Shown here in pieces: positions 2,947 through 41,220 of a DNA stretch of 51,141 nucleotides (position 1 is the stretch's first letter; every line of letters starts with the position of its first letter). Made by a program: the position numbers and the translations under genes. The stretch spans positions 1-51,141 of the forward strand of contig JALIDQ010000001.1 of NCBI GenBank assembly GCA_022865275.1, read 5' to 3'. This DNA is from Candidatus Nanohalarchaeota archaeon QJJ-9. Its GTDB lineage: Archaea > Nanohalarchaeota > Nanosalinia > Nanosalinales > Nanoanaerosalinaceae. The notes under the pieces are model-generated. The model made no database searches. It had not been told where the DNA came from and was given only the letters and a program-made list of their open reading frames with translations.

Positions 2947-3109
2947 TGGACTCGCGGGGATTTGAACCCCGGGCCTCTTCCAATTTGGCTCTTGGTTCGG
3001 ACACGAACCTCGTGTCGAAGATCAAAGATCTTCTCCAACCGTTTTCCCTCAAAGATTCGGAAAAACGGTGTTGCCAAGGAAGCGTTCTGCCAAGCTGAAC
3101 TACGAGCCC
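2947..3109 (-). tRNA. tRNA-Ala (anticodon GGC) with 89-nt intron
   Basis: GGGCTCG-TA-GTTC-AGCTTGGCA-GAAC-G-CTTCC-TTGGCAA [intron 2982-3070] GGAAG-AGGCC-CGGGG-TTCAAAT-CCCCG-CGAGTCC-A. The G3:U70 alanine identity pair is present. Mature length 74 nt. Confidence 0.85.
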
Positions 3110-4649: not shown

Positions 4650-4834
4650 TGGACCCTCCGGGGTTCGAACCCGGGACCGCCGCCTATCTCACGACTGGCG
4701 TCCCAGTCGGCAGGACGGTCGCGTTCAAGGGAACGCTCCGACGCTCCGCGGCTGGTATGTTTCGCGCCACTTCTGAGTATATGGGCGCGATGTCCGTATA
4801 AGGACGGTGCTCTAACCAACTGAGCTAAGGGTCC
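4650..4834 (-). tRNA. tRNA-Ile (anticodon UAU) with 111-nt intron at 37/38
   Basis: GGACCCT-TA-GCTC-AGTTGGTTA-GAGC-A-CCGTC-CTTATA [intron 4686-4796] A-GGCGG-CGGTC-CCGGG-TTCGAAC-CCCGG-AGGGTCC-A. Loop CTTA can pair with intron-terminal TGAG, flanked by 3-nt bulges (bulge-helix-bulge-like). Confidence 0.7.
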
Positions 4835-5583: not shown

Positions 5584-5685
5584 AACCGGCTCCCTTCTTT
5601 TTCTTTTTTTATTCGATCAGGGATGGATTTAAGAATTTTAATGGTGTATACAAAATTTAGTTCTTGAAAATTCTAGGTGATTACT

Positions 5686-7359
5686 ATGGCAAATTTAGGA
5701 GGACAACCAATCTTCATAATGTCGGAAGACGCTGAGCGTCAGACCGGCAAAAATGCTCAAGAAAACAACATAAACGCTTGTAAATCAGTTGCTAACGCGA
5801 TAAGGACTACTCTAGGTCCTAAAGGGATGGACAAGATGATGGTAGATTCTGTAGGCGACCTAGTCGTAACCAATGACGGAGTCACCATCCTCGACGAGAT
5901 GGAGCTAGAGCATCCCGCCGCCAAGATGATGGTAGAGATTGCAAAGACGCAGGACGAGGAGGTAGGCGATGGAACAACTACAGCAGTAGTCCTTGCAGGA
6001 GAGCTTCTCAAGAAGTCGGAAGACCTTCTTGATCAGGACATCCACCCCACAGTTATAAGCTCCGGTTACAGGCTAGCAAAGGAAAGAGCTCTGGAGGAGC
6101 TTAATCAGATAGCGGAAGACGTGAGCTTTGATGACCGTGAAAAGCTTGAATCGGTAGCGAAGACTGCTATGACAGGCAAGTCCGCAGAAGCTTCTAAGGA
6201 TTATCTAGCTTCAATAGCTGCGGACGCTGTAACCAGCATTGCGGACAGTCTTGACGGTAGCTTCGAAATCGACCGTGATCTTATAAAGGTTGTAAAAAGC
6301 CAGGGAGGCTCTGTAGACGATACAGAGCTAGTTGAGGGAGTTGTAATAGACAAGGAAAAAGTACATCCTGACATGCCTTCGAGGAAAAGCGAAGCGGATA
6401 TAGCGCTCCTTAACACTGCGATGGAGGTACAGGAGACCGAAACCTCTGCGGAGATTCAGATAAACGATCCGAATAAGCTTCAGGAGTTCGTCGACCAGGA
6501 AGAAGAAAGTCTTAAAGAGATGGTTGAACAGGTTAAGGAATCTGGTGCGGATGTTGTTCTATGCCAGAAAGGTATAGACGATATAGCCCAGCATTACCTT
6601 GCCAAGAATGATATCATGGCTGTTAGGAGGGTCAAAAAGTCTGATATGGAGAAGCTTGCAAAGGCTACAGGTGGAAGAGTGGTAACAAGCCTTACCGACC
6701 TAAGCCAGAGCGATCTAGGAAAAGCTGGAAATGTAGGCCAGGAGAACGTTTCAGGAGATAGCATGCTTTTCGTAGAGGACATAGAAGAAGCTGAATCCGT
6801 GACTATTGTTGTAAGGGGAGGAACTGAACATGTAGTGGACGAGATAGAGCGCGCGTTTGAAGATGCATTAGGAGGAATCGCCTCTGCTATAAGAGTAGGA
6901 AAGGTAGTCGGTGGAGGAGGCGCTCCAGAAGTCGAAGTCTCAAAGGAACTTAAAAACTACGCAGATAGAGTTGGCGGAAGAGAGCAGCTTGCGATAAACG
7001 CTTTCGCGGAAGCTTTGGAAATAGTGCCGAGGACTCTCGCGGAAAACGCAGGCCTGGACCCGATTGATATCCTTGTAGATCTGAGGAACAAGCATGAAGC
7101 AGGGGACAAATGGTCAGGAATTGATGTCTTTTCAGGTGAGGCTGACGATCTTTTCGACCGGGACGTGGTTGAACCGCTCCAGATTAAGACTCAGGCGGTA
7201 CAGTCCGCGTCTGAGGCGGCTGAGTTGATCCTCAGAATTGATGATGTAATCTCTGCCTCAGGTTTCGGCGGTGGAGAAGGTGGCGGTGAACCACCTGCCC
7301 CAGGCGGTGCCCCAGGAGGAGCTGGAGGAATGCCTGGTGGGATGGGAGGAATGATGTAA
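5686..7359 (+). CDS. ths: Thermosome subunit (group II chaperonin)
   Basis: [42 protein letters not shown] and C-terminal [11 protein letters not shown] tail. ATG 5686 is preceded by AGGTGA; the track GTG 5677 is an alternative. Confidence 0.95.
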
Positions 7360-7512
7360 GGTATTTCCTCCTTTACTGTCTTTTCTTTTTTCTTCACTCC
7401 TTCTTTCCTTGACTATCTCCCTATTCGAGGCTGAAACCGAGCCAGAGGGGAAAGTTATTTATAGAGGGATGGATAGTTTGATTATGTAAGTATAAAACCA
7501 GGTGTGTTAAAA

Positions 7513-8061
7513 ATGCCAGACGAAGAAGAGGTAAAGCTATCTGCTGATAATCAGGATTCTGACGAATATGAGATAATCCCTATGGGTCCTGTGAGGAAGC
7601 TTGAAAAGAGGATTGACGAACTTGAGGAACAGAAAAGCCAGAGTATGTCCGGCAACGAGAACCTTGTCCGCGATATTCTCGATATAATGAAAGCCAATCA
7701 AAAGATTGTCAACGACATGGTGCAGTCCAACACCGAGCTCCATAACTCTATCGAGGAGCTTACCACTAAGATGGATAAGGTTATGGGCAATATGAGTGAT
7801 TTTATGGGGCTTTTGGAGGAAGCTTCTGAAGCTTCACTCGAGGAAGATGTATCCGCTAACCTCAGCGAGGATCTTGTCTCCCCTATTTCTGACAGTATGG
7901 AGAATCTCAAGCACACGAACGAAAAGATGCTTGAAGGTTTAGGAAAGATTGATGAAAGCCTAAACCAGCTTGATAAGCGGATGAAGAGGTTGTACGCTTC
8001 TCAACGGAGTTCTTCAAACCGTGGTACTACTAGACAATCGTCTAGAGGCCAGTCCCAATAA
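7513..8061 (+). CDS. Acidic coiled-coil protein immediately upstream of the pilus operon
   Basis: About 180 aa, heptad-rich and D/E-rich with a basic Ser/Arg tail. Stop is 3 nt before the first pilin ORF. No family recognised. Confidence 0.5.
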   Translation: MPDEEEVKLSADNQDSDEYEIIPMGPVRKLEKRIDELEEQKSQSMSGNENLVRDILDIMKANQKIVNDMVQSNTELHNSIEELTTKMDKVMGNMSDFMGLLEEASEASLEEDVSANLSEDLVSPISDSMENLKHTNEKMLEGLGKIDESLNQLDKRMKRLYASQRSSSNRGTTRQSSRGQSQ

Positions 8062-8082
8062 ATAATGTGGAGGAAAGATACT

Positions 8083-8628
8083 ATGTTTACGAAAAAAACT
8101 AGGAAGGGTATCACCCCAGTGATCGCTGTTGTACTACTTCTTATGATGACAGTTGGAGCGGCAGGAGCTTTCTACTCTTACTACTCCGGTATGCTTGACA
8201 AGTTTATGGGTAAGGCGACGGAGAGGCAGAACACCCAGTTCAGTATCAGTAGTCTGGAGTGTGGTACTGGAAACACCAACAATATCACAGTAGTCTTTTC
8301 CAATAACGGTCAGACAACTTTGGATCTTAGCCCTGCAAATATCTATGTCCATCAGGGAGACTCGGAAATTTACGGGCTTAGTAAGCAGGGAATTTCTCTT
8401 ATGAGCTCTAGTGTAACCGACAACGATAATATCACAACGATCAGCACCTTGGACGATGATTTTTCAACCACTAACTCGCGAGCTGGTTACAATATAGAGC
8501 TGGATCCTGACAGTACTTCGGACAACGACTTCCAGGAATATAGCTCCTATACTATAGAATTCCAGTTCCCACAGATAGCTGGGGGTAGAAGCAAGTCTGC
8601 TACATGTTCCGCTGAGTCTTTGGACTGA
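8083..8628 (+). CDS. Archaeal type IV pilin-like protein (class III signal peptide)
   Basis: N-terminus MFTKKTRKG/ITPVIAVVLLLMMTVGAAGAF matches the archaeal pilin N-terminal domain pattern (KG then hydrophobic helix). GGAGG lies 9 nt upstream of ATG 8083. Confidence 0.75.
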   Translation: MFTKKTRKGITPVIAVVLLLMMTVGAAGAFYSYYSGMLDKFMGKATERQNTQFSISSLECGTGNTNNITVVFSNNGQTTLDLSPANIYVHQGDSEIYGLSKQGISLMSSSVTDNDNITTISTLDDDFSTTNSRAGYNIELDPDSTSDNDFQEYSSYTIEFQFPQIAGGRSKSATCSAESLD

Positions 8629-8704
8629 TCGGCTCAGCCTGTTTTTTATCTTTCTCTACAAATCTTTTTATGGGAGGCTGACTATTCTAATTATAGGGAT
8701 TGTT

Positions 8705-9340
8705 ATGCTAAGTCTTACAAGAAAAGCTCAGTCACAGGTTATATCCGCTGTTATAATCGGTGGTATCCTTGTGGGAGGGATAAGTGCGGCATATGTCTGG
8801 GGTGTGCCTCTACTACAGAAAAACCGGGACGTTGCCAATATCAAAGAAACTATATCAACATTCAACGATCTTAACGATGCGATAAAGGCTGCAAAGACCA
8901 GAGGAAGCTCTGGTGAAATACCTATCTCTGTGGGCTCGGGAGAGCTTAGGATAGATCCGGATAATGGCTCTATAACCTATACAGTAAGCACGAACGCCGC
9001 CTACGTAGATTTGGAGGGATGGACTCCTATAAACGAGAACGATATGCGGGGAGTAACCGAGCCGGGCCACGGTTTCCAGGGAGATGATGAACCTGGAGTC
9101 CTTGTAGGGAAAGCTGTTGAACTTCAGAAGGACAGGTACCAGAACACTTACAAGCTTGCCTACAGGCAGATGAAGGAGTCGGACTCGGATAGGTACCATC
9201 TAATAGACCTTGAGCAGAATGGTAACCTAGATGCTTCAGGAGGGGATCATAGTATAGTTGTAAAGCCTGGAGATAAGGAAACAGTCGATATGGGAGATAA
9301 GACCCTTGTTAACCATACTGTACTAGTCAGGATAGAATGA
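8705..9340 (+). CDS. Pilin-like protein (class III signal peptide)
   Basis: N-terminus MLSLTRKA/QSQVISAVIIGGILVGGISAAYVW: short basic leader, small residue, then a hydrophobic helix. Confidence 0.6.
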   Translation: MLSLTRKAQSQVISAVIIGGILVGGISAAYVWGVPLLQKNRDVANIKETISTFNDLNDAIKAAKTRGSSGEIPISVGSGELRIDPDNGSITYTVSTNAAYVDLEGWTPINENDMRGVTEPGHGFQGDDEPGVLVGKAVELQKDRYQNTYKLAYRQMKESDSDRYHLIDLEQNGNLDASGGDHSIVVKPGDKETVDMGDKTLVNHTVLVRIE

Positions 9341-9774
9341 TTAGGATGTTTAACTCCAGAAAAGGGCAGTATTCTGTAATAGAGCAGGTGATACTTTTCG
9401 GGTTAGGCATAGCTGTCCTAACCGGATTCCTAACCACTTTCCAGAACTTTGGGGAGGAGGCTAAGCAGGAGGCTATGGACCGCCAGTCTCGACTGTTAGC
9501 GGAACTGGTCAGGATGAATATTGTTCACCTTGAATCGTTGGGAGAGAAGTCCAGTATAAGATTTTCTCTTCCAGAGAAGCTCGCAGGGGAGGGTTATAGG
9601 ATAAACCTTACAGATGACGGTGTAGCGGTCCAGGTCATAGGAACTGGTTCCAACTATCTTAAAGGGTGTGCCGGACTTGAGGATGAATACCGGTTCAATG
9701 GCTCTGTTACCAATATCTATAACAAAGGTGTATTAAAACTGGAGAACAATAAGATTGTTTTAGGGGCGCCATAA
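9337..9774 (+). CDS. Pilin-like protein (class III signal peptide)
   Basis: N-terminus MFNSRKG/QYSVIEQVILFGLGIAVLTGF, with an acidic residue early in the mature helix as in type IV pilins. Overlaps neighbouring genes at both ends. Confidence 0.6.
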   Translation: MIRMFNSRKGQYSVIEQVILFGLGIAVLTGFLTTFQNFGEEAKQEAMDRQSRLLAELVRMNIVHLESLGEKSSIRFSLPEKLAGEGYRINLTDDGVAVQVIGTGSNYLKGCAGLEDEYRFNGSVTNIYNKGVLKLENNKIVLGAP

Positions 9775-11561
9775 TGTCGTTTGATTTTTCCAACCTAGTA
9801 AAGAGAGTAAAGAAAGCAAAGAAGAGGAAGAAGGAGGTGGAGAAAAAGAAGGCTGAGAAGATTGAGATAGAGAGCGGCCCCGCTAAGCTAGAGAGCGATA
9901 TATCACGTGGAAGACCTGCAGAAGATGTTTCAGAGCCTGAAGAGGAAGAAGGCTACCAGGAGACTAAGGAGAAGGTAAGCCTTACACCTACTGTTAAGGG
10001 ACCGGGTGAGTGGATAGAGAAGGATAAGGATGAGGACAAGGTTTCTGATGAGGCTAAAAAGGACATAGATGTGGAATACCCTCTTATTCCTGAGGAACCT
10101 GCTGAAGATGAGAGGTTGATGGCTAAGGCGCATATTTTCTATGATGAATCATCACAGGAGCTTATGTATCATCTATACGAGCCTGAGAGGAATGAGAAGG
10201 TAGAAAAAGCTCTGAAGAGGATAAAGAAGGAGCTTAAGGATAGTATAGACGTTGACTTCGCCCAGCTAAAGAAGGAGGAGGCGAAGAACTATCTCCAGGA
10301 GAAGGTCGAGGACATGCTGGAGCGGCAGAACTTTGGATTAAGCGAGGAGGAACGGGATGTAATCCAGTACTACGCCTACAGGGACTTTGTAGGGCTGGGT
10401 AAGATAGAGCCTCTTATGCACGATACTGAGATAGAGGATATATCATGCGATGGAACAGGCATTCCTATCTATATCTACCATAGAAACCCTAAGATAGGTT
10501 CTGTAAAGAGTAATATAGTGTTTGAAGGAGACGAGAACCTGGACAAGTTTGTAAGAAAGCTTGCACAGAGGTGTGGAAGAAGCATATCTATGGCTGAGCC
10601 TTTGCTTGACGGTTCTCTACCTGATGGCTCACGTGTACAGGCTACTTTGTCCACAGATATAGCTAGGCGTGGGACTAACTTTACTATAAGAAGATTTACA
10701 GAGGAACCTCTTACACCTATTCACCTGATGGATTATGGTTCTATAAGTGCTGATATGCTAGCCTATCTCTGGGTATGTATTGAGAACGGTAAGTCAGTGC
10801 TTATTCCTGGAGCAACCGCTGCAGGTAAAACTACACTCCTCAATGCTCTCAGTCTTTTCATCAGACCTGAGCTGAAGATTGTGTCTATCGAGGACACTCC
10901 TGAGCTAAGACTTCCGCATCCTAACTGGGTTCCGGAGGTTGCAAGAGAAGGTTTCGGGTTTGGAGAGCAGGATACTGGTCAGGTAACGATGGACGATTTG
11001 CTTAAGGAATCCTTGAGACAGCGTCCTGACTATATTATAGTGGGTGAGGTACGAGGAGAGGAAGCTTATATTCTGTTCCAGCAGATGGCTACGGGCCATC
11101 CTGGAATGTCTACTATCCACGCTTCCAGTCTGTCAAAAGTAATGGACCGCCTTACAACTAAGCCTATAGATTTGCCCCCATCTCTTATAAGCAATATAGA
11201 TATGTTGGTATTTACTAAGAGGGTAAAGACACAGGAAACAACTCTAAGGCGTGTAGGCTCGGTTCACGAATTCCGAGAGTATGATAAGGATCAGGACAAG
11301 CCGATAGTAAATAATATATTTCAGTGGGATGCTTCAGAGGACGAATTCGACAATATAAATGATTCATTCCTTATCTCGGAGATTGCGGAGGAACATGGGA
11401 GGGATGTTGAGGATATACAGGAGGAGATAGAGAGGAGGAAGAAGATTCTGAACTGGATGCTTGAGAAGGATATAAAGCATTACGAAGAAGTGGGAAGGAT
11501 AATTTCAACCTACTACCAGAACCCTGACCAGATAGTCAGAAGAGTTAAAGAGGAGATATAG
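9774..11561 (+). CDS. Type IV pilus/archaellum-family assembly ATPase (FlaI/PilB, T2SSE family)
   Basis: Walker A IPGATAAGKTTLLNAL, Walker B/Asp box RPDYIIVGEVRGEEAY and His box ATGHPGMSTIHASS. Carries a K/E-rich N-terminal extension of about 110 aa. Confidence 0.9.
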   Translation: MSFDFSNLVKRVKKAKKRKKEVEKKKAEKIEIESGPAKLESDISRGRPAEDVSEPEEEEGYQETKEKVSLTPTVKGPGEWIEKDKDEDKVSDEAKKDIDVEYPLIPEEPAEDERLMAKAHIFYDESSQELMYHLYEPERNEKVEKALKRIKKELKDSIDVDFAQLKKEEAKNYLQEKVEDMLERQNFGLSEEERDVIQYYAYRDFVGLGKIEPLMHDTEIEDISCDGTGIPIYIYHRNPKIGSVKSNIVFEGDENLDKFVRKLAQRCGRSISMAEPLLDGSLPDGSRVQATLSTDIARRGTNFTIRRFTEEPLTPIHLMDYGSISADMLAYLWVCIENGKSVLIPGATAAGKTTLLNALSLFIRPELKIVSIEDTPELRLPHPNWVPEVAREGFGFGEQDTGQVTMDDLLKESLRQRPDYIIVGEVRGEEAYILFQQMATGHPGMSTIHASSLSKVMDRLTTKPIDLPPSLISNIDMLVFTKRVKTQETTLRRVGSVHEFREYDKDQDKPIVNNIFQWDASEDEFDNINDSFLISEIAEEHGRDVEDIQEEIERRKKILNWMLEKDIKHYEEVGRIISTYYQNPDQIVRRVKEEI

Positions 11562-11569
11562 GTGGTTTG

Positions 11570-12454
11570 ATGGGTGAAAAAAGCAGCTACTACCGTTTTG
11601 CGGACAAGTATCTCAACCAGTATTCCTATAATCTTTCTGAATACTTCCGGGATCTTAAAACCGACTTGAAAAAGGCTAATATACCTTATACACTTTCCGA
11701 ATATCTAAGCGGGGCTTTAATGACCTCTATATTAGTATTTATTTTTGTAACACCTACAATATCTGTTCTGGCAGGTTTGATAGCGGGTAACTTTACAGGA
11801 ATGATAGCAGGACTTATTATGGGGCTTTTCATAGGAATATTTCTCAGTGTGGCGACTTTTATGGGATTTTATATCTATCCCCGGATACAGGTCTCGAGGC
11901 GGAGGACTAATATCAACCATAACCTCCCGTTCGCTACAATGTACCTTTCCACTGTTGCGGGCACGGGTACACCGCCTGCAGCCATGTTCAAGCTTCTGGG
12001 CCAGTTCGATGAATATGGGGAGGTTTCGGGAGAAGCGGAAAAAATTGCGAATAACGTCTACAATTTTGGTGCTGATATAAACGAGGCTATAGCATCTGCG
12101 GCAAATAATACTCCATCACCAAAGTTTAAAGAGCTATTATGGGGCATGAACTCTATTCTAAAGACTGGTGGGGATATGAAAAGCTTTTTGAGGAGCAAGA
12201 CGAAGGAGTACATGGCTGACTACCGCAGAGATCTGGACAAGTTTACTGAGACTCTTTCTTTACTTGTAGAGATGTATATTACTCTTGTAATCGTTGGCTC
12301 GGTGTTTGTTATGATTATATCTACGATAATGTCTGCTTTAGGTGGAAGCAATATGATGATACTGGCTATACAGGTTGCTACTGTGGTTTTCTTACTTCCG
12401 TTAGCCGCTATTATGTTTATTGTTATAGTTAAGGGTACTTCACCTCTTGAATAA
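11570..12454 (+). CDS. T2SSF-domain polytopic membrane protein (FlaJ/TadC-like, first half-equivalent)
   Basis: LPFATMYLSTVAGTGTPPAAMFKLL motif, a cytoplasmic T2SSF-like domain and flanking TM helices. ATG 11570 follows AGGTGG. Confidence 0.8.
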   Translation: MGEKSSYYRFADKYLNQYSYNLSEYFRDLKTDLKKANIPYTLSEYLSGALMTSILVFIFVTPTISVLAGLIAGNFTGMIAGLIMGLFIGIFLSVATFMGFYIYPRIQVSRRRTNINHNLPFATMYLSTVAGTGTPPAAMFKLLGQFDEYGEVSGEAEKIANNVYNFGADINEAIASAANNTPSPKFKELLWGMNSILKTGGDMKSFLRSKTKEYMADYRRDLDKFTETLSLLVEMYITLVIVGSVFVMIISTIMSALGGSNMMILAIQVATVVFLLPLAAIMFIVIVKGTSPLE

Positions 12455-12500
12455 CTTTTTAGTATCAGGTATGGGAAGTATAATATGAGGAGAGAATGAG

Positions 12501-13415
12501 ATGGAGTTAGAAGAAGGACTTTCAGGGAAGCAGAAGGTTGAATATCTTTCGCTTGGAGCCGGAGGTATCCTTCAATTCTTTGGAATCTCTGTCTACGTGG
12601 TTTTCAATCCTTCTCTAGGAGCTGCAATATTTATAGCAGGTCTTATAGCTGCTTTTCTACCTTACGGTCTTTATACATACTTTCACGGTAAGAAAATAAG
12701 CAAAGTAGAGCAGGAGTTCCCTAACTTCCTTAAAAACCTTTCAGAGTCCCGTAAATCTGGTATGTCTGTTTCACAGTCTTTTAGAAACGCTGCAAATTCG
12801 GACTACGGTGAGCTAGATTCTTATGTGCGAAAGGCGGCAAATCAGCTTTCCTGGGGTATAACGTTTCCTGAGGTGATGAAAAACTTCCAGAAAAGCCTTA
12901 AGGAGTCTAGTATAGTTGCAAGGTCTATTTCGGTAATACTACAGTCCTACAGGTCGGGTGGAGACGTAGCGGAAACTATGGATTCTATAGCAGAGGATGC
13001 TAACAAGATAAAATCTGCTGAGAAGGAGAGGAAGTCGGTACTGACCCAGCAGGTCTTTATAATCTATGCGATCTACTTCCTGTTTATTGGGATACTTGTA
13101 GCTCTCTACAAGATACTTGTACCGTTGCTTGAAATCGGAGGAGGAGGTTTTATGGGAACCCCTCCAAATTTCTGTAATAGTGTTATAGGCCCTGTATGCA
13201 GTCTCTGCCCTACTTTCTTTGGTACACAGGGGGGAAGCCGTTTGTGCTACTATAAGGCTATCTTCCTTGTTATGATTGTTGTAGAAGGATTTTTCAACGG
13301 TCTTGTAGCGGGAGAAGTGCGTTCAGGGGATATCGCTTCAGGGTTCAAACATATAATGATAATGTTGCCTGTAGGATTCATTTCCTATGTAGGAGCTCTC
13401 CGTATTATGGGGTGA
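12501..13415 (+). CDS. T2SSF-domain polytopic membrane protein (FlaJ/TadC-like, second half-equivalent)
   Basis: EQEFPNFLKNLSESRKSGMSVSQSF ... SGGDVAETMDSIAED T2SSF-like domain between TM helices. Confidence 0.75.
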   Translation: MELEEGLSGKQKVEYLSLGAGGILQFFGISVYVVFNPSLGAAIFIAGLIAAFLPYGLYTYFHGKKISKVEQEFPNFLKNLSESRKSGMSVSQSFRNAANSDYGELDSYVRKAANQLSWGITFPEVMKNFQKSLKESSIVARSISVILQSYRSGGDVAETMDSIAEDANKIKSAEKERKSVLTQQVFIIYAIYFLFIGILVALYKILVPLLEIGGGGFMGTPPNFCNSVIGPVCSLCPTFFGTQGGSRLCYYKAIFLVMIVVEGFFNGLVAGEVRSGDIASGFKHIMIMLPVGFISYVGALRIMG

Positions 13416-13419
13416 GAAG

Positions 13420-14259
13420 ATGCATAAGGAGGGACAGATTTCTATAGACTATGTAGGGGGAGCTATGATATTCTTTGTTTCGATAGTTTTCGTTGTGCAG
13501 GGTATCGTAGGGACTATCCCTCAGTATTCCAGCATCGCCGAATCTAACCGTGAGGAGATAGCGGCATGGGGCCTATCAACTTCTCTTGTAAGTGATACAG
13601 GGTACTGGTCTGATGTGTACGATGGCACCAACTGGGAGGACAATGTTATCACAGGAAAGGTGAAGCGGATAGGTCTAAAGTCGCCGGAGGGATCTGGGGT
13701 TTCACGTGAGAAGATAAACAAGCTACTTGGTATGGATTATAAGGAGATAAAGAAGCTATTCGAGACAGGGAAGGATTTCAGCATAGAGTTTACAGAATAT
13801 GCGGTTGTAAAGCTTTCAGGAGAGTTTTATAGAGGAGGGGATATAGACGGTATAGAGACCTATAACGGTTTTAAACCTCCCAGTGATGGTTTAGGCGGTG
13901 CGGATAGGTATATGCGGTATGGGACTATATCTATCAATGGATCGGAGAGGTATTTTCTAGCATCCTTTGATGACTCTGATTTCGATGGTCTTTATGTTTC
14001 CGACTCTATAGATTTTTCAAGCTCTGAGAAACTTGAGCAGGGAGAACTTAAGACACTCGACTTTAACGGTAGAAGGTTCAGGTTCGGTTTAGGGAGTTCA
14101 GGCCTTTCTACCAGTAACGGAAAGATTCTGCTGGTGGAGAGGGTGATGGGTAGGATAGGTAGGAGGATCCCGACATCGGAGGAAACCGTTACCCGCGTTA
14201 AAAGATATTCAAACACTCAGAAATCGATTATAATGCTTGATATGAGGGTCTGGAAATGA
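13420..14259 (+). CDS. Pilin-like secreted protein (class III signal peptide), 279 aa
   Basis: N-terminus MHKEG/QISIDYVGGAMIFFVSIVFVVQGIVG; overlaps the next gene (ATGA-type junction at 14256-14259). Confidence 0.5.
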   Translation: MHKEGQISIDYVGGAMIFFVSIVFVVQGIVGTIPQYSSIAESNREEIAAWGLSTSLVSDTGYWSDVYDGTNWEDNVITGKVKRIGLKSPEGSGVSREKINKLLGMDYKEIKKLFETGKDFSIEFTEYAVVKLSGEFYRGGDIDGIETYNGFKPPSDGLGGADRYMRYGTISINGSERYFLASFDDSDFDGLYVSDSIDFSSSEKLEQGELKTLDFNGRRFRFGLGSSGLSTSNGKILLVERVMGRIGRRIPTSEETVTRVKRYSNTQKSIIMLDMRVWK

Positions 14260-16418
14260 GGAAGGGTTATCTGCATGCGGTGGAGGGGGTTATAGCCAGC
14301 CTTTTAGCAGTGCTATACCTCGGAACGATTATATCTACCCCTCCCGCCACCGACTGGGAGAAAACCTCTCTCAACAAGCGTTCAGGCGATCTGCTTGGAG
14401 CGATGTCGGAGACAGGTGTTATCGACTATGCGGTACTGGAAGACGATTCTTCTATAGTACGGGGAACAAAGAATGTTCTTGGCTCTAATCTAGAATATTC
14501 TATGCATATCTCAGGCCTTCCGAAAAGGGATATGGAGATTTCTATGATACTGCCGCAGGAGGATGTTACTAGAGCTCCCTCCTTCAACGATTCGTATATA
14601 AACAGTAACTGGGCGGATCTAGGCCTTCCACCGTCAGAAGACGGTGCTGGATACCGTTCCGGAGAGATTATGGGTATAGATTTTGTTGTCTACGATCTTA
14701 TTGAGAACGGTGTAGCTGATTACAATGGGGTTAGCTTTGATATTAACAGAGACGGGGACTTTGGAGACACTGGGATAGACTTTGAGGAAGGTCCTTACCG
14801 TGCCAGGAAAAAGATAGACTGTCGTTCCACCTTCTGCCCTGATACTATAATAGGTTATATCGGTAAATCGCTTACTCTATACAATACCTCGGGAGAGCAG
14901 GAATACGCTCCCGGCCTTTCAGGAGTAGAGATTGGAGGTATTGATGTGGAGACCAGTATTATTCCTGAGGAGATCTACCCTGTTATCAACGTTTCCTCAA
15001 GCGATTTCTCGTATGAAGACGGTTACTGGGTAGCTGACAGGAATATGCAGGGGTTAAATGTAGATTTCAATATATCCGATTCTTCAGGTAATTCTACGCT
15101 CTATATTAATGATTCAGAGCATTTTAGAGGATCTTTTTACTCTGGAGACTCTGTGAGGGTTGCTGGAGGAATCTATTCGATAGAATCAGTTATGCCTCTA
15201 CACTTGAAACCTCAGACCCGGGTGGACTCGGATGTTCTGTTCCTAGAGAGACTGGAACCAGGTTATATAGACAACCATTCCTCTACTATTTACTCCACAC
15301 TGTCCAACGGAGGGACGATTATCGATATGTCTAACTGGACTGAGGAGGATTATCTAGGATCTTGTATGGAAAATCTTGGGATAGGTTGGAGAAACTTTCC
15401 TTACAGCTCTCCTGGAACTGGGTCGAGGTTTTATAGGGGTGAAGACTCTCCCGACTATATAAGGCAGTCTTTCAACAGTATGGGGATCGGATTGAATTCC
15501 AGCCTTTTCGAGGAGCATGGTTCGTATAGTATAGCGAACCTTACGCTTAAAGGCGAGGAGTTTTATGTCAATATAAGTTCCGGCGAGGTCTCTATTAATA
15601 GAACGAAGGAGTTTGATGAATGGTATTCACAGGGAGAAAGGTTGTTCCTTGCTGGCGAGTCTTACAGGATACAGCAGATACAGCCATATCCTTTTGTCCT
15701 GAATACAGGAGATGAATACCGTTTTAAGAATTATCCCGCATCAAACTTTACTGGTGAGACTGTATTAACGGTTGAAAAAGCGGTATGGAATGTTGAAGAG
15801 TCCAGCTACAATGCTACAGGTATGTTTGAATATTCAGGAGATGATTCAACTCTCCCTAACTCTAAATGCGGTAACCGCCGTGTAAATAAAAGCTTTAGCG
15901 TGGGAGAGAACACATTTAATGTTGTATTAACGGATAAAGAGCCTTGTGGAGATTTTGACTATGTCAATTTTGACTTTAACTCTAACGATGCCTACAACGA
16001 CTCCGAGGAGGATACTCCTGCAGGATTCGGTGCGGAAGGGATATACAGGAGGGGAGAAGAGGTGGTTATAGACGGGGAGCCGTATAGGATAGAACTGGGT
16101 AATGAAGTGGACTCTGATCCTTCCGGGGACTGGGTTTACCTTGAGAGAGAGGTGCCTAACCATGTTCCAGCTGCGGTCTGGCATTCTGGTGTGTTTAACG
16201 GTCGAGGAAACCTATTCCAAATGCCTGATGTTAAAATAGGTGATGACGGCATGTCTCTCCTAAAGTCTGTGATAGTCCGCGCGTCAGTTGAGCGTTACAG
16301 GTTTTCGCAGTCAAAGATATCTGGAGGTAACGCTATAGGACTGACCTATGCGGAGGAGCTTGACAACGAAGTCTATCTACCCTATACTATAGAATCTCTA
16401 TGGTGGTACGGTGAATAG
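14256..16418 (+). CDS. Large pilin-like/surface protein (class III signal peptide), 720 aa
   Basis: N-terminus MRKG/YLHAVEGVIASLLAVLYLGTII. Acidic, with many N-x-S/T sequons; no catalytic motifs recognised. Confidence 0.5.
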   Translation: MRKGYLHAVEGVIASLLAVLYLGTIISTPPATDWEKTSLNKRSGDLLGAMSETGVIDYAVLEDDSSIVRGTKNVLGSNLEYSMHISGLPKRDMEISMILPQEDVTRAPSFNDSYINSNWADLGLPPSEDGAGYRSGEIMGIDFVVYDLIENGVADYNGVSFDINRDGDFGDTGIDFEEGPYRARKKIDCRSTFCPDTIIGYIGKSLTLYNTSGEQEYAPGLSGVEIGGIDVETSIIPEEIYPVINVSSSDFSYEDGYWVADRNMQGLNVDFNISDSSGNSTLYINDSEHFRGSFYSGDSVRVAGGIYSIESVMPLHLKPQTRVDSDVLFLERLEPGYIDNHSSTIYSTLSNGGTIIDMSNWTEEDYLGSCMENLGIGWRNFPYSSPGTGSRFYRGEDSPDYIRQSFNSMGIGLNSSLFEEHGSYSIANLTLKGEEFYVNISSGEVSINRTKEFDEWYSQGERLFLAGESYRIQQIQPYPFVLNTGDEYRFKNYPASNFTGETVLTVEKAVWNVEESSYNATGMFEYSGDDSTLPNSKCGNRRVNKSFSVGENTFNVVLTDKEPCGDFDYVNFDFNSNDAYNDSEEDTPAGFGAEGIYRRGEEVVIDGEPYRIELGNEVDSDPSGDWVYLEREVPNHVPAAVWHSGVFNGRGNLFQMPDVKIGDDGMSLLKSVIVRASVERYRFSQSKISGGNAIGLTYAEELDNEVYLPYTIESLWWYGE

Positions 16419-18687
16419 GAGAAAAGCGCAGTTTTTCATACTTACAGCAGTTTTAGTAGCTGGATCTCTTTCGATTACGATGGAGGCTCTCGATGACTAC
16501 ACACAGATAGGCTACACGGAGATATCGGAGAGCAGTTTCCCTATGCAGGTAAGCTCTATAGCTAATACAATAGAAAAATCCTGGTACAGCGAGTCCTGGA
16601 ATTACAGAAAGACTGTAAAGGTGTTTGAGACGAGTGGTAGAGCTGTAGAAAACTTCCCTGTAAGTTTTGATATAAACAGTTCAGCCCTTATTAGCTCTGA
16701 TGGGCTGAAATCGGACTGTGGAGACCTTAGAGTGGTAGAAGACGGTGAAGAAATTCCTTACCAAATAGAGGAAGGGGAGTGTGATTCGGAAAATACTACT
16801 GTATGGTTCATGGTGTCTCTTGAGCCAGGCGAGTCGAAGGACGTCTATCTTTACTATGGAAACAAGGATATAGAAGAGCCTACTTATGGTACTGACCTCT
16901 ACATGGGCGAGGATGGGTTTGGTAACAGTCAGGTTGATTTCGTTACAGGGAGTTTTGACGGCGGTGAAGGTGTATCTGAGGTGAATGTCCAGGGCGAGGA
17001 TATTACAGGCAACGGTGGAGCGATATATGAGGGTTCTCCTAGTTTTGACGTTGTTGAGAGAGGAGAAGTCTATATGGATGTGGAGCTAGGAGGTGAGACC
17101 TACCGATTGTTCTCGGACAACCAGTTCCTCCGTTGGTTAGGGAGTAAGTCGCTTGATCCTGGATTCGAGTTCTGGTACGGTGAAAACGACGGCTTTTCGC
17201 ATTGGGAGGCTGGGAACGAGAGCAACAGCTTTCCCATAAGCAACTACTGGTCGGGAAGCTTTTCTGAAGGTAGTCTACCCTACCTTGCCGCGTATAACGC
17301 TTCCAGTGGCAACTATCTAGCCGCGGCTACCAGCATCCGACAGTCTAACGTGGATGGTTACGGATTCGAGAACAGGAGTTTAGGCCAGTATATGAACTTT
17401 AGCTCTGAAGACAATGGAGACATACCCTACATCGACTTTCTGGTTGGGAAAAACGGTATAAACCACTTCAGGACTAACTATCATACTGTAACACCTAGAG
17501 TAGAACTCTTGGATGGTTCGGAGGAGTTTGGAAAATTTAACCCTACTGATGGCTGGAATAGTAAGGTTAGAGTTTCTGTAAAGGAACGTAACGGAAGCTA
17601 TCTAGAAGAGTATCCTGTAAACTTAAGTCTTAACCTAGGAAGGATGGATACTAAGAGAGATTGCTCCGATCTGGTGGTTGTGGAGGACGGGGATATAGTT
17701 CCTCACAGATTAGCTAGTCGGTGCGACAGTCTCTCGTTTGAGGAGCCGGACAATTACTTTACCCGCTGGGATATGGATGGAGGAGAGGGCGACCGGGTAC
17801 ATAGTACGGACGGGCTTTTCTACGGCGAACTAACCGGTAGTCCACAGCCTGAATGGGATGTGGGAAGGTTTGGTCTGGGGCTAAGGTTTGACGGGGATAA
17901 CTATGTTGAGGTTCCGGATTCCCACAATATTGACCTTTACGACCTTTCTTATACTCTTTCACTCTGGTTTAGAGGGGATGTGAACGAGTTTGATTACGAT
18001 GGAGGCAAGTCCAAGCTTTTCTATTATCCTGAAGAGTCTCCTGGACTCTCTGTTGTAAATGAGACAGGGTATTATTATCTTCAGGCCTCTTTCAGAAACG
18101 AGACAGGAGATCTATCATCTATCAGGGAGGATATAAGTTCTTACGACTCCTCTGAATGGCACCATGTGTCCTATGTGTACAATAAGACTGGTTCGGAGAT
18201 TTTACTATATATTGACGGGGATCAGAAGGGCTCTCAAGATGTTAAAGGCTCTTTAGAAACAGATTCAGACTCTATAAAAATTGGAGAAGGTTTGAAGGGC
18301 TATATGGATGAGATTAAGCTCTATACTACACCGCTAGAAGCAAGGGAGATAAGAGACCAGTATGTTACAACCTCTATAGTAACCTTCAAGACTAACCTTT
18401 CTGCGGGAGAGGTTGAGAGAGATGTGGCGGTATTTGTAGGCAATAATGCGGGTTTGGATAAAGATTTCTCAGGAGAGTTTCCCGCGCCTAATCCCCTTGA
18501 TTCAGACCATAGACCGGTTGTGGTGTCTAAGAACACCTTGACCTACTCTGAAATGATAGGGAGGATTTCTAGGCATATAGAGGAGACTAGCAGCCTTGCT
18601 TCATTCCTTGATATAAGTGTAGAAGGAGGATGTGCTGTTCTAGATTTTGACGCGGGCAGTATAAAGGTAAACAAGAGAATCTGCTAG
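16411..18687 (+). CDS. Large pilin-like protein with DUF2341-like modules and a LamG (Laminin_G_3-like) domain, 758 aa
   Basis: N-terminus MNRRKA/QFFILTAVLVAGSL. DUF2341-like WNYRKTVKV...ENFPVSF...CGDLRVVEDGEEIPYQIE...VWFMVSL...VYLYYGN (aa 62-151), with a partial second copy at aa 380-440. LamG-like GLGLRFDGDNYVEVP...HHVSYVY...LLYIDGDQKG...YMDEIKLYTTPLEAREI (aa 452-648). Confidence 0.65.
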   Translation: MNRRKAQFFILTAVLVAGSLSITMEALDDYTQIGYTEISESSFPMQVSSIANTIEKSWYSESWNYRKTVKVFETSGRAVENFPVSFDINSSALISSDGLKSDCGDLRVVEDGEEIPYQIEEGECDSENTTVWFMVSLEPGESKDVYLYYGNKDIEEPTYGTDLYMGEDGFGNSQVDFVTGSFDGGEGVSEVNVQGEDITGNGGAIYEGSPSFDVVERGEVYMDVELGGETYRLFSDNQFLRWLGSKSLDPGFEFWYGENDGFSHWEAGNESNSFPISNYWSGSFSEGSLPYLAAYNASSGNYLAAATSIRQSNVDGYGFENRSLGQYMNFSSEDNGDIPYIDFLVGKNGINHFRTNYHTVTPRVELLDGSEEFGKFNPTDGWNSKVRVSVKERNGSYLEEYPVNLSLNLGRMDTKRDCSDLVVVEDGDIVPHRLASRCDSLSFEEPDNYFTRWDMDGGEGDRVHSTDGLFYGELTGSPQPEWDVGRFGLGLRFDGDNYVEVPDSHNIDLYDLSYTLSLWFRGDVNEFDYDGGKSKLFYYPEESPGLSVVNETGYYYLQASFRNETGDLSSIREDISSYDSSEWHHVSYVYNKTGSEILLYIDGDQKGSQDVKGSLETDSDSIKIGEGLKGYMDEIKLYTTPLEAREIRDQYVTTSIVTFKTNLSAGEVERDVAVFVGNNAGLDKDFSGEFPAPNPLDSDHRPVVVSKNTLTYSEMIGRISRHIEETSSLASFLDISVEGGCAVLDFDAGSIKVNKRIC

Positions 18688-19951: not shown

Positions 19952-20758
19952 ATGGGAAAGGGAATAACTCCTATAATAGCGGTTCTGATACTGACGGGTA
20001 TAGTCCTTTCTGGAGCCCTGGTAGCGCAGCAGTTTGTTCTTGATAGGCAGGAAGATATAAAAAACCACCTAGAAGAGGCTTTAAGGAATAATTTGGAAGT
20101 TGAAAGGGTATACTGTAACGGTAAGAAGCTTAGCTTTCTTTTAAACAATACTGGAGGCTATCATATCGATGAAGCGGGTGTGGATGTCTATATATACCAT
20201 GGAGCCGAGGCTAACTACTCAATGTCCCGCCGAGGTCTTACTTTTGAAGGAGGTTTTCAGGAGCCGCACAGCTCGGGCTATTTCAACGTAACTATAAACG
20301 GCTTATTCCTATCCGACCAGGTTTACTCAGTGGAGCTTGCTGGAACGGATGAACAGGCTTCTTTGAGGAAATCCTGCCGTGGAGGAAGGAGGTGGTGGGA
20401 TATCAACTGGGACTATAGAAGGCAGGTTGTTGTGGAGAACCAGGATAGCTCCGGAATAACCGATGGAATAGCTTCTGTAGAACTTAATACTTCCAGTCTT
20501 ATTGACGAGGGTAGGATGAATCCTGACTGCTCCGATCTGCGCGTGGTGGAGAAGGAAGAGGTTGTGGACTATTCGATAGATTCTTGCAACAGCCCTTCCA
20601 GTACTATAAAGTTTAGAAACTCTGTATCAGGTTATGGCCGGGCTTTCGACACGTATATCTATTATGGAAATCTTAGAGCGGAGGATGAGAGTGTTTCTAT
20701 AACTGATACTACTTCCTCGGATCTTGTTACTGACCTGAGATACGAAGAGTCTCGCTAG
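19952..20758 (+). CDS. Archaeal pilin N-terminal domain fused to a DUF2341-like domain
   Basis: MGKG/ITPIIAVLILTGIVLSGAL, then WWDINWDYRRQVVVEN...CSDLRVVEKEEVVDYSID...DTYIYYGN. Its stop codon overlaps the rfcS stop in a CTAG palindrome (20755-20758). Confidence 0.65.
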   Translation: MGKGITPIIAVLILTGIVLSGALVAQQFVLDRQEDIKNHLEEALRNNLEVERVYCNGKKLSFLLNNTGGYHIDEAGVDVYIYHGAEANYSMSRRGLTFEGGFQEPHSSGYFNVTINGLFLSDQVYSVELAGTDEQASLRKSCRGGRRWWDINWDYRRQVVVENQDSSGITDGIASVELNTSSLIDEGRMNPDCSDLRVVEKEEVVDYSIDSCNSPSSTIKFRNSVSGYGRAFDTYIYYGNLRAEDESVSITDTTSSDLVTDLRYEESR

Positions 20759-25281: not shown

Positions 25282-25408
25282 GCCCCGTTAGCTCAGCTGG
25301 GAGAGCACGTCCTTGGTATCTCAGGACACACTCCGAACCCGATGCCAACGCGAGTTGAGTCTGAGAACAGAAAGGACGAGGTCCCGGGTTCGAATCTCGG
25401 ACGGGGCT
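25282..25408 (+). tRNA. tRNA-Thr (anticodon GGU) with 54-nt intron
   Basis: GCCCCGT-TA-GCTC-AGCTGGGA-GAGC-A-CGTCC-TTGGTA [intron 25319-25372] A-GGACG-AGGTC-CCGGG-TTCGAAT-CTCGG-ACGGGGC-T. Confidence 0.85.
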
Positions 25409-37517: not shown

Positions 37518-38909
37518 ATGAGGAGGAAGACTTTACTTTTAGCTATGCTGGTTCTGGTTGCCTCTACTGCTTCTGCAGTTGATTCTTTCGAGGTAGATAT
37601 AACATCTGAAAACACGAGGTTAAATCCAAGCGAGGGAGAGACAGCCGCGTTTTATGTGAATGTTACAAACACAGGCGACTCGGAGGGGACTTTTGAGACA
37701 AGCTATTCCTCTGCTGCTTCTCCTGTATGGATAAATGCCAAGTCTCCTATCAATACTCTGGCTCCTGGGGAATCGGGAGTGACTGAGATTACGGTTTCTC
37801 CTGATGAAAAGGCGGTGAGCAATTCATGGGGACTGGATATAAGGGTTGTTTCGTGGGATGATGGGGAGGAGTTCCAGACTCTTGAGTCCTTTGATGTTGT
37901 ACGGGATAGGGATCTTGTTATAACTAATTTCAAGGGTGCAAGGTCTAGTTACAAACCTAACTCGCATGTAAATGTTTCTGTTGATGTTAAGAATGTTAGA
38001 GTTGATGAACTACCAGCGAACCAGTACCAGGTGGTTCTGGACGTTGAGGGGGATAATGTTACTGAACCTATTCCGTCGCTGGAGTTGGGAGAGTCTGCCT
38101 CGGTTGGTATAGATTTGAAGCTTGAGAACTATGAGGCGGGAGTTTACGACCTTGAAGCGGTTGTAAGGGAGATTCAGGGAGATGTGCACAGCACTTATGG
38201 TTCGAAGATTGAGGTTGAGCCGTTTAAAGATGTTGTAAAGGAGGAGGAGTCTACTTCCAAGTTTTTCGGTTCCCAAAGGAGCTTTAAAGTCTCTAATAAT
38301 GGGAATATAAGGGCGGAGAATGTTACTAGGACTTTCTCACTTCCATGGTATGCCTCACCTTTTGTCTCGTTCTCTGAGGAGCCTGTAAAGGAGGGGGATC
38401 AGTATACCTGGAAGGTTGAGGAGCTTGAGCCTGGAGAAGAAGCTAGTTTTACTTATTCTGTAAGCTACTGGCCTCTTGCTGCGGTCGCTGTTATCATCGC
38501 GGCGATCCTTGTTATGCTCTACTGGAGTATGCGGAAGGTTTCGATTGTTAAGTCGGTGAGGCGGGGGGAGGACTATCATAATGTCCATTTAAGGGTTAAG
38601 AATAATACTGGAAGGACTGTAGGCAAGGTTAGGGTCCAGGATTTCGTGCCTGGAATTGCTTCTCTTATCGAGAAGTTTGATTCGAGGAGTCCTGAGAGGA
38701 TTCAGAATACTGAGGAGGGCACTAAGCTTACCTGGAGGCTTGGGCAGGTTGAACCTGGTGAGGAGAGGATTATCAGCTATAGGATAAAGCCTAAGGTTCA
38801 GGTTGAGGGAACTGTGTCGATTCCTAACGCGGAGGTTTTCTACCAGGTCGATGGTAAGAACCGCGAGGCGACTTCTAATCCTACCTCTACGGCTTTTCCG
38901 GAGCAGTAG
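37518..38909 (+). CDS. Bitopic surface protein with CARDB/Ig-like repeats
   Basis: Signal peptide MRRKTLLLAMLVLVASTASA, beta-rich repeats (ITNFKGARSSYKPNSHVNVSVDVKN...), a single TM helix (WPLAAVAVIIAAILVMLYW) at about aa 318-338, then a C-terminal domain of about 125 aa. Confidence 0.5.
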   Translation: MRRKTLLLAMLVLVASTASAVDSFEVDITSENTRLNPSEGETAAFYVNVTNTGDSEGTFETSYSSAASPVWINAKSPINTLAPGESGVTEITVSPDEKAVSNSWGLDIRVVSWDDGEEFQTLESFDVVRDRDLVITNFKGARSSYKPNSHVNVSVDVKNVRVDELPANQYQVVLDVEGDNVTEPIPSLELGESASVGIDLKLENYEAGVYDLEAVVREIQGDVHSTYGSKIEVEPFKDVVKEEESTSKFFGSQRSFKVSNNGNIRAENVTRTFSLPWYASPFVSFSEEPVKEGDQYTWKVEELEPGEEASFTYSVSYWPLAAVAVIIAAILVMLYWSMRKVSIVKSVRRGEDYHNVHLRVKNNTGRTVGKVRVQDFVPGIASLIEKFDSRSPERIQNTEEGTKLTWRLGQVEPGEERIISYRIKPKVQVEGTVSIPNAEVFYQVDGKNREATSNPTSTAFPEQ

Positions 38910-41115: not shown

Positions 41116-41220
41116 CCCTCCTTAGCTCAGCCTGGCAGAGCGTCCGCCTGTAGCACCAGCCGGATGCTATCCACTGTTTCAGCCAGCGGATCGTCCCCCG
41201 TTCAAATCGGGGAGGAGGGA
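41116..41220 (+). tRNA. tRNA-Tyr (anticodon GUA) with 31-nt intron
   Basis: CCCTCCT-TA-GCTC-AGCCTGGCA-GAGC-G-TCCGC-CTGTAG [intron 41154-41184] A-GCGGA-TCGTC-CCCCG-TTCAAAT-CGGGG-AGGAGGG-A. Has the C1:G72 pair characteristic of archaeal tRNA-Tyr. Confidence 0.9.

Follow-up and report, generated by a model that had tools for sequence, protein, structure and literature searches.

A type IV pilus-like locus conserved among cluster-2 DPANN archaea, with modular pilin-like proteins in a nanohaloarchaeon

A conserved type IV pilus-like locus

The DNA analyzed here is a 51,141-nucleotide stretch (the window) from Candidatus Nanohalarchaeota archaeon QJJ-9 (contig JALIDQ010000001.1, positions 1 to 51,141), in which a run of + strand genes, designated P0 to P10 (Table 1), encodes a coiled-coil protein (CCP; P0), an assembly ATPase (P4), a platform protein (P5 and P6) and pilin-like proteins (P1 to P3 and P7 to P10). 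We consider it probable that these genes constitute a conserved type IV pilus (filament) assembly locus of cluster-2 DPANN archaea, working by the mechanism proposed below. Judged from gene content, the locus is a type IV pilus-like assembly system and not an archaellum.

An earlier note on this DNA had described nine co-directional genes, several with overlapping stop and start codons, at 8065-18687. The list of open reading frames (ORFs) with their translations bore this out: all nine + strand ORFs were present at these coordinates with the N-termini that had been quoted, and start and stop codons overlap at four junctions (9337-9340, 9774, 14256-14259 and 16411-18). The bounds of the locus had been drawn too narrowly, since the operon unit extends past 8065-18687 on both sides: the conserved coiled-coil gene P0 leads it and a seventh pilin-like gene, P10, stands just downstream, and both had been overlooked.

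With the ATPase P4 as query 80 related loci were found, all of them in DPANN archaea and at 47-63% identity (where the record names a lineage, Nanohaloarchaeota 53-59%, Aenigmatarchaeota and Undinarchaeota 47-56%; best match overall 63%). About 40 nanohaloarchaeal loci share one gene order, namely CCP, one or two PilA-type pilins, P2, P3, ATPase, P5, P6, P7, P8 and P9, which is closed by convergent genes for the large and small subunits of replication factor C (RFC). The core of P0, P2, P3, ATPase, P5, P6, P7 and P8 recurs in Aenigmatarchaeota and Undinarchaeota.

A locus of this kind, common to nearly all nanohaloarchaea and to many other DPANN archaea, has been published. Hamm et al. 2024 (Nat Commun, PMC11291902) described two type IV pilus-like loci with CCPs conserved across cluster-2 DPANN and Undinarchaeota, the first of which (Locus 1) consists of GroEL, CCP, FlaF/PilA, CpaF and TadC; several of the locus proteins, including CCPs, were present in the proteome of Nha. 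antarcticus and a role in host interaction was proposed. Our locus fits Locus 1 and would be a member of this known system, having a thermosome gene upstream (5677-7359), the CCP gene first, PilA/FlaF-type, CpaF/FlaI-type ATPase and TadC-type genes and an occurrence in the same phyla, a likeness drawn from the published description. It differs from Locus 1 as published in that the last pilin-like gene is about seven times longer (758 versus ~105 aa) and carries DUF2341 and LamG domains, and in an extra DUF2341-bearing pilin between the RFC genes. Probably the same operon was annotated 'archaella' in Ca. Nanohalobium constans (FlaG, FlaI, FlaJ, FlaJ2 and hypothetical proteins; La Cono et al. 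2020, PMC7443923), on which filaments were seen. In the published descriptions of Locus 1 and of the Nanohalobium operon the five accessory proteins and their haloarchaeal correspondence are not resolved, and Zhao et al. 2022 (PMC9563170), describing Tad-like clusters in Nanohaloarchaeota, reported "no pilins annotated". The pilins of DPANN loci were considered fast-evolving and unrecognisable by Makarova et al. (2016, 2019). What is new here is the family-by-family assignment of the accessory genes, with P8 as a conserved large DUF7288-type member, together with the lineage-specific modular enlargement of P9 and the gene P10. The type IV filament picture is unchanged and the published locus is refined.

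Assembly machinery

The earlier note had assigned P4 to the FlaI/PilB family from its Walker A, Walker B and His boxes, and profile searches agreed with this: Pfam returned T2SSE (E 1e-33) and PilB3_C (34 bits), and the motifs can be read directly in the translation (Walker A GATAAGKTT, Asp box SIEDTPEL, Walker B DYIIVGEVRGEE, His box GHPGMSTIHA). The best NCBIfam match was the FlaI equivalog model at 440.9 bits, below its cut-off of 550. Among structures in the PDB, P4 scored 392 bits against the 2OAP chain, whose deposited name is 'Type II secretion system protein', 287 against FlaI and 158 against CpaF.

The two T2SSF-domain membrane proteins were likewise recovered by Pfam profile search, with one domain each in P5 (E 2e-15) and P6 (E 6e-18). 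They match the N- and C-terminal halves, respectively, of the ArlJ/UpsF models: P5 covers positions 10-248 of 555 of the ArlJ/FlaJ model and P6 positions 200-458 of 465 (NCBIfam). The ArlJ scores are 101.7 and 68.2, where 550 and 400 would be needed. The predicted platform protein is split over the two genes.

The product of the first gene, P0, is acidic and has neither a signal peptide nor a transmembrane helix, and a homologue occupies the same position in 63 of the 80 related loci. A conserved N-terminal motif YE(V/I)(V/I)PxGP(I/V)RKLE precedes the coiled coil, and residues E23, P29 and E34 are invariant in 64 sequences. This motif has the look of a peptide for docking, perhaps onto the ATPase. 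Searches of Pfam and the PDB with the P0 family returned solely generic coiled-coil matches and no specific family, and FlaC_arch gave no match. ArlX (PF24151) matched 11 of 64 members at E values of at least 0.0058, and dozens of unrelated coiled-coil families matched equally well.

Pilin-type leaders and accessory pilins

Archaeal class III signal peptides are recognized in FlaFind 1.2 by the motif [KRDE][GA][ALIFQMVED][ILMVTAS] followed by a hydrophobic stretch (PMC4307647), and this motif is strictly present in P1, P2, P7 and P10. When only [KRDE][GA] plus a hydrophobic stretch was required, 10 of the 71 window ORFs of at least 100 aa were found, seven of which lie in the locus with leaders of no more than 15 residues. 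The remaining three have it 15-29 residues from the start of the ORF, and their Pfam matches are a weak DUF1275, a mechanosensitive-channel transmembrane helix and a weak ArsP permease. The pilin-type leader motif is enriched in this locus beyond chance.

P1 matched the archaellin/pilin N-terminal domain TIGR02537 at 29.6 bits (cut-off 20), with weak UpsA and Pilin_N matches, and its leader RKG/ITPVIA (the slash separates residues -1 and +1) is conserved in 42 of 42 orthologues. Its best PDB match is a chain of 8fk7, deposited as 'Flagellin'. Across six families of pilin-like proteins, each with 34-64 orthologues having a detected leader, position -2 is essentially always Lys and position -1 Gly or Ala, and Gln predominates at +1; in the P3 family (51 orthologues in all) KG/Q is kept in 44-47 of the 47 with a leader. 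Glu is conserved at +6 in P3 and P8, and P3, P7 and P8 share a conserved acidic residue at +5/+6 as in bacterial pilins. The P7 family follows the motif KG/QxxxE[FY], with Glu or Asp at +5 and an aromatic residue at +6, and the same motif occurs in Haloferax mediterranei (L084:13133-13672). A G/xxxxE[FY]-type pattern is the processing motif of bacterial Flp, TadE and TadF, and the motif of the DUF7287-type proteins (G/QxxxE[FY]) bears on the proposed archaeal origin of Tad pili.

The accessory pilins were then compared with families known from haloarchaea. In Pfam only P2 passed the gathering threshold of its own family (DUF7289, 28.7 bits, threshold 27). P3 fell just below that of DUF7266 (24.9 versus 27.6), P7, whose family is present in 71 of the 80 loci, fell below that of DUF7287 (22.6 versus 27), and P8 gave no match in the Pfam and NCBIfam scans. 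Single members of the P8 and P9 families showed weak Pfam matches only, to DUF7288 and DUF7261. Searching the haloarchaeal proteins with the P7 and P8 family profiles by hmmsearch gave no match, and a profile-profile comparison was needed. With hhalign the P2 family matched DUF7289 at 96.8% (E 3e-10), the P3 family DUF7266 at 92.6% (E 6e-8), the P7 family DUF7287 at 82.4% (E 1e-6) and a broad N-terminal profile of P8 matched DUF7288 at 90.6% (E 1.3e-6), with four control families below 0.5%; all off-diagonal comparisons were at or below 3.1%.

A tblastn search with P4 against plasmids led to haloarchaeal loci in Halobaculum halophilum, Haloferax mediterranei (pHME505) and Salinibaculum. In Halobaculum the ATPase and platform genes are followed by a row of DUF7287, DUF7288, DUF7261 (weak, sub-threshold), DUF7266 and DUF7289 genes (Pfam); Hfx. 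mediterranei has five genes of matching size in the same position and Salinibaculum has three (DUF7288, DUF7266, DUF7289). On these comparisons P2, P3, P7 and P8 are one-to-one, specific homologues of haloarchaeal DUF7289, DUF7266, DUF7287 and DUF7288, respectively. P9 maps tentatively onto DUF7261, which ranks first among Pfam families for 4 of 36 proteins of the P9 family and which suits the position of P9 in the gene order. In a literature search we found no paper naming DUF7266 or DUF7287 to DUF7289. The 'hypothetical' genes of the locus would then be a complete minor-pilin set matching, family by family, uncharacterised pilus loci of genetically tractable haloarchaea (Haloferax), in which their roles are testable.

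The large proteins P8 and P9, and P10

Two of the pilin-like proteins had been described in the earlier note as giant, lectin-like subunits of some 700 aa. Only P9 proved lectin-like, and only P9 is unusually long for its family. The P8 family was present in 61 of the 80 loci, always directly after P7. Its members have 570-610 aa in the majority of nanohaloarchaea and 430-470 aa in Aenigmatarchaeota, and the 720 aa of P8 are roughly a normal size for the family. P8 is predicted to be beta-rich, with 16 N-X-S/T sequons and three weak internal repeats (z = 5.7, 2.4 and 2.6), and profile scans of its sequence revealed no recognisable lectin domain. The DUF7288-type member of DPANN bears a large additional region at its C-terminus, an extension of ~500 aa in P8. 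A full HMMER scan with the P8 profile found 138 clusters among 1.84 billion representatives, while a word-based homologue search gave only three relatives.

Four database proteins of 1040-2058 aa (P0031, P0032, P0034 and P0035) carry the C-terminal part of P8 at their own C-termini; for P0031 the listed best match is to the N-terminal part of P8. A module shared with P8 thus occurs in much larger proteins as well.

P9 is truly enlarged. Pfam searches with DUF2341 and Laminin_G_3, which the earlier note had proposed, found both domains in P9, at residues 102-172 (E 4e-9) and 494-647 (E 1e-14). The layout comprises a DUF2341 domain at ~60-175, a beta-rich region, a second DUF2341-like copy at ~380-440, the LamG/concanavalin A (ConA)-like domain at 494-647 and a C-terminal tail. 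A structure model of P9 reached a predicted local distance difference test (pLDDT) score of 63, with 70-87 in the domains; the DUF2341 domain, the beta-rich middle and the LamG domain are confident. Foldseek matched the model to ConA-like jelly rolls, including clostridial neurotoxin receptor-binding domains, a domain of the AbnA arabinanase with ligand, trans-sialidases and collagen IX NC4. The N-terminal ~60 aa of P9 align with a protein of ~105 aa at the same position in 34 loci (KG/QFMLISAV...). Proteins in this position are normally ~105 aa long and reach ~300 aa in four loci; 758 and 778 aa are found only here and in the closest relative, L002. Only five further clusters of full-length relatives were found database-wide. 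The P9 family was defined by position and motif; an iterative hidden Markov model search from full-length P9 was discarded after it drifted onto the P7 family via the shared N-terminal helix. P9 is thus a short pilin-type N-terminus with grafted binding-type modules, a lineage-specific enlargement of the ~105-aa component.

P10 combines features of P1 and P9. Its N-terminal 100 aa match P1 (E 4e-9, BLASTP), and its C-terminal ~100 aa, a DUF2341 domain, match the two DUF2341 copies of P9 (E 1e-15 and 3e-4, BLASTP). Among the 18 nanohaloarchaeal loci with the downstream region listed, an equivalent gene between the RFC genes was present only in L002. A modular pilin design of class III-type leader, helix and grafted domain can be read in both P9 and P10. 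A functional model for P9 is offered by Streptococcus sanguinis, in which the modular minor pilins PilB (vWA) and PilC (ConA-like lectin) belong to a tip complex (PMC9934059, PMC8179133). P9 resembles PilC in its short pilin moiety with a class III-type leader, its ConA-like/LamG domain and the location of its gene in a pilus locus; it differs in being archaeal and in having two DUF2341 copies with the LamG domain, and it has no sequence relationship to PilC.

A 1368-aa LamG protein (25468-29574, - strand) was considered as a further pilin and rejected, since its signal peptide (KKSSFLLLSFLILLPLFSTSVTA/TN) is of the usual Sec type. With Laminin_G_3 and Ig/fn3-like domains, this secreted protein is the second large surface protein of lectin type.

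Proposed mechanism and relation to known systems

For the type IV pilus which we consider the probable product of the locus, we propose that the leaders are cut after the Gly or Ala by a prepilin peptidase whose gene lies elsewhere in the genome, and that P4 with P5/P6 extrudes a filament consisting mostly of P1. P2, P3, P7, P8 and P9 would form a priming or tip complex, by analogy with the minor pilins of bacterial type IV pili and type II secretion. P8 and P9 would be placed at the tip because only there could their bulky extracellular parts be accommodated, and there the ~500 beta-rich, sequon-rich residues of P8 and the bulky part of P9 would be exposed. P9 and P10 are best taken as modular pilins which would present glycan- or receptor-binding domains for attachment to a haloarchaeal host or to surfaces, and P0 would be a cytoplasmic coiled-coil accessory or regulatory subunit. 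A role in host capture is plausible and had already been proposed by Hamm et al. 2024 (PMC11291902).

A more specific and only tentative version of this proposal is that the tip has been re-armed in this lineage: P9, and the duplicated PilA-type P10, would have gained DUF2341 (P9 also LamG) and, together with P8, might form a glycan-binding head of ~150 kDa which chooses the haloarchaeal host. If true, archaea would have in this tip a counterpart to the modular tip pilins of bacteria, and the tip would become a candidate for what sets the host range of DPANN symbionts. The size of the terminal component varies by lineage (~105, ~300, ~770 aa) and it gains lectin-type domains, as expected of a determinant of host specificity. 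For the question of how DPANN archaea find and hold their hosts, the locus is among the few candidate attachment machines common to many DPANN lineages.

Several characterized or surveyed systems share parts of this plan. The architecture of euryarchaeal type IV pili with multiple pilins was laid out by Makarova et al. 2016, and a likeness in pilins links the locus to the euryarchaeal clade 2 or 'system 2' pili (H. volcanii PilB4-type; Makarova et al. 2016, Fig. 4B), through DUF7287, DUF7288, DUF7266, DUF7289 and tentatively DUF7261. We infer from their long ATPase and own pilin set that the haloarchaeal plasmid loci of Halobaculum halophilum and Haloferax mediterranei resemble this PilB4-type system. 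They share with our locus part of the gene order (7287-7288-7261) and ATPases 41-45% identical over the catalytic part, and P4 has PilB3_C. They differ in having a single platform gene of ~680-700 aa and an ATPase of 833-989 aa, whereas here the platform is split and the ATPase has 595 aa. All five of their pilin-like genes lie downstream, whereas here two of five lie upstream and a coiled-coil gene leads; the ~500-aa extension of the DUF7288-like protein is found here and not in the haloarchaeal loci.

The two platform genes (TadB/TadC-like) recall instead the Epd pilus of Methanococcus maripaludis ('system 1') and the bacterial Tad pili derived from system 1 (Denise et al. 2019; bioRxiv 10.64898/2026.04.22.720090). 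A 2026 survey of type IV filaments (the same bioRxiv preprint), which treats a split platform as a trait of system 1, noted such platforms in DPANN and, for loci of system 2, large proteins resembling adhesins. Further likenesses to system 1 and Tad are the multiple class III signal proteins, some with adhesin- or lectin-type domains, and the G/xxxxE[FY] motif of P7 which is shared with Flp, TadE and TadF. Unlike in system 1, no EppA-type peptidase with nine transmembrane helices, short Flp-like major pilin or other marker was found here, and CpaF is a far poorer match for P4 than FlaI or the 2OAP chain.

A number of observations weigh against the reading of the locus as a pilus with these components. 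The earlier note had counted six class III signal N-termini. Conservation of the K-[G/A] pair at family level speaks for all six, but in the strict FlaFind 1.2 check only P1, P2 and P7 passed, and P3 (KG/QY), P8 (KG/YL) and P9 (KA/QF), with Tyr or Phe at +1/+2, failed. Neither Peptidase_A24 nor Arc_PepC was detected among ~40 window ORFs scanned with Pfam, in agreement with the earlier statement that the window encodes no prepilin peptidase; the genomes of relatives were not searched, and Nanohaloarchaeota have been reported to encode TadV elsewhere in the genome. The structure model of P8 was unusable (pLDDT 38.5, from a four-sequence alignment) and the N-terminal helix of P9 was not confidently predicted in its model. 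The match of the P9 family to DUF7261 was weak (13.6%, E 2e-3, over 26 aligned columns of leader and helix), if the best of the five. With a split platform and no long ATPase extensions, the haloarchaeal mapping holds for the pilins and not for the whole machine.

Alternative explanations

The alternative which survives best, and which we still regard as unlikely, is that P8 and P9, and perhaps P2, P3 and P7, are no filament subunits: an uncleaved signal anchor would hold them in the membrane by the N-terminus, and they would either help to assemble or align the machine on the periplasmic side or act as independent surface adhesins expressed alongside the pilus. The failure of P3, P8 and P9 in the strict FlaFind check speaks for this, as does the sharing of a C-terminal part between P8 and its relatives of 1040-2058 aa, and ArlF and ArlG set a precedent of pilin-like proteins which are not filament subunits. 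On the other hand, Lys at -2 and Gly or Ala at -1 before the helix are invariant in the 34-64 orthologues of each family, which is unexpected for a mere anchor, and P3, P7 and P8 have the conserved acidic residue of bacterial pilins at +5/+6. Conservation is strict both for the gene order and for the translational coupling to the machinery genes. For P9 a Tat signal (RRKAQFF) was considered and rejected, as the twin arginine is not conserved in its orthologues and the Lys alone is invariant.

Less likely again is that the machine makes only a short pseudopilus or piston, as type II secretion or competence systems do, and no long adhesive pilus; it would then secrete, or take up host DNA or nutrients. 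Five accessory pilin-like proteins beside one PilA-type gene do give a layout like that of type II secretion and Com systems, import of DNA or nutrients by DPANN pili has been proposed in print, and the nanohaloarchaeon is host-dependent, with cytoplasmic exchange reported by Hamm et al. 2024 (PMC11291902). Against it stand P1, whose gene has expression signals of its own and codes for a canonical PilA-type pilin, the filaments seen on Nanohalobium (PMC7443923) and the fact that no retraction ATPase or DNA receptor was identified. The content of the window does not tell long from short filaments.

It is very improbable that the locus encodes a divergent archaellum, an organelle for swimming; this was the annotation given to the Ca. 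Nanohalobium constans operon that appears to be orthologous. FlaI is the best NCBIfam match of P4 (441 bits), P5 and P6 match ArlJ models, P1 gave a weak ArlF match (the sole ArlF signal, E 3e-4), P0 is a coiled-coil protein like ArlX/ArlCDE with the weak ArlX matches in 11 of 64 family members, and 'archaella-like' thick stalks were seen by La Cono et al. 2020 (PMC7443923). However, all specific matches were below curated cut-offs (441 versus 550, 102 versus 550, 21 versus 110), the ArlX matches do not stand out from those of unrelated coiled-coil families, the platform is split, P4 has FlaI (287 bits) as a more distant match than the 2OAP chain (392), and the accessory set matches haloarchaeal pilus-locus families and not ArlF/G. 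No KaiC-like ArlH, archaellin domain or ArlG was found among the ~40 window ORFs scanned, and no ArlH-type KaiC-like protein in the conserved neighbourhoods of the listed nanohaloarchaeal loci. P1 and P10 had no archaellin-domain match at E <= 1, sharing with archaellins the N-terminal pilin/archaellin domain alone. The view of the earlier note that this is not an archaellum was upheld. Housekeeping genes (thermosome, RFC) flank the locus here and in about 40 relatives, so that no fla genes hide beside it. What appears to be the orthologous nanohaloarchaeal operon has been annotated 'archaella' and lacks all of the archaellum-specific components tested here.

Gene organization and expression signals

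The features of the locus are collected in Table 1. The promoter prediction tool used does not cover archaeal promoters, and TATA-like boxes were read from the sequence alone. P0 ends 3 nt before P1 starts. P1 may be over-expressed relative to the machinery genes, and the terminator-like T-run of its own which follows it is consistent with this.

Table 1. Genes and putative expression signals of the pilus-like locus (positions in the window; a slash separates residues -1 and +1).
Feature	Position	Strand	Length	Remarks
Putative promoter region	7450..7503	+		TATA-like box TTATTTATAG at ~7457-7466, ~40-55 nt 5' of first gene; read by eye, inferred
P0, predicted cytoplasmic coiled-coil protein (CCP)	7504..8061	+	185 aa	182 aa if ATG at 7513 is the start
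P1, PilA-type pilin, candidate major subunit	8065..8628	+	187 aa	Likely start 8083, MFTKKTRKG/ITPVIAVVLLL
Intergenic region P1-P2	8629..8704	+		T-run CTGTTTTTTATCTTTCTCT, terminator-like, then TATA-like box TCTTTTTATGG 5' of P2; read by eye
P2, minor pilin-like, DUF7289 family	8705..9340	+	211 aa	RKA/QSQVISAVII
P3, minor pilin-like, DUF7266 family	9337..9774	+	145 aa	RKG/QYSVIEQ, conserved Glu at +6
P4, assembly ATPase, archaeal PilB/FlaI/GspE family	9774..11561	+	595 aa	T2SSE and PilB3_C; acidic/basic N-terminal extension
P5, platform protein N-terminal half, TadB-like	11567..12454	+	295 aa	T2SSF
P6, platform protein C-terminal half, TadC-like	12501..13415	+	304 aa	T2SSF
P7, minor pilin-like, DUF7287 family	13420..14259	+	279 aa	KEG/QISIDY
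P8, large pilin-like	14256..16418	+	720 aa	RKG/YLHAVEGVIA; N-terminal ~75-200 aa DUF7288-like, remainder beta-rich
P9, modular pilin-like	16411..18687	+	758 aa	RKA/QFFILTAVLV; two DUF2341 and LamG
P10, seventh pilin-like	19952..20758	+	268 aa	GKG/ITPIIAVLIL; P1-type half and C-terminal DUF2341; between two RFC genes

Among the related loci, two (L004:17874-20981 and L030:17767-20955) have an RFC small subunit ORF of ~1035-1062 aa against the usual ~315, which suggests an intein or other large insertion.

Other features of the window

Further putative surface proteins in the window are a Beta_propel family protein of 649 aa (31126-33075), a CARDB/DUF11 protein of 463 aa (37518-38909) and a GLUG-motif protein of 613 aa (47665-49506). 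A 5S rRNA gene lies at 43646-43760; no 16S or 23S rRNA gene was found in the window. Matches to tRNA of 94-185 nt at 1971-2064, 2947-3109, 4650-4834 and 25282-25408 were not called by ARAGORN and are presumably intron-containing archaeal tRNA genes. ARAGORN called a tRNA-SeC (anticodon tca) at 41143-41220, where Rfam gave no tRNA match at its gathering threshold; probably the call is spurious or the tRNA aberrant. The overlapping ORFs at 39610-40062 and 40059-40580 both match, below threshold, the same N-terminal part of ArsP_1 and may be tandem half-size permeases or a duplicated fragment.

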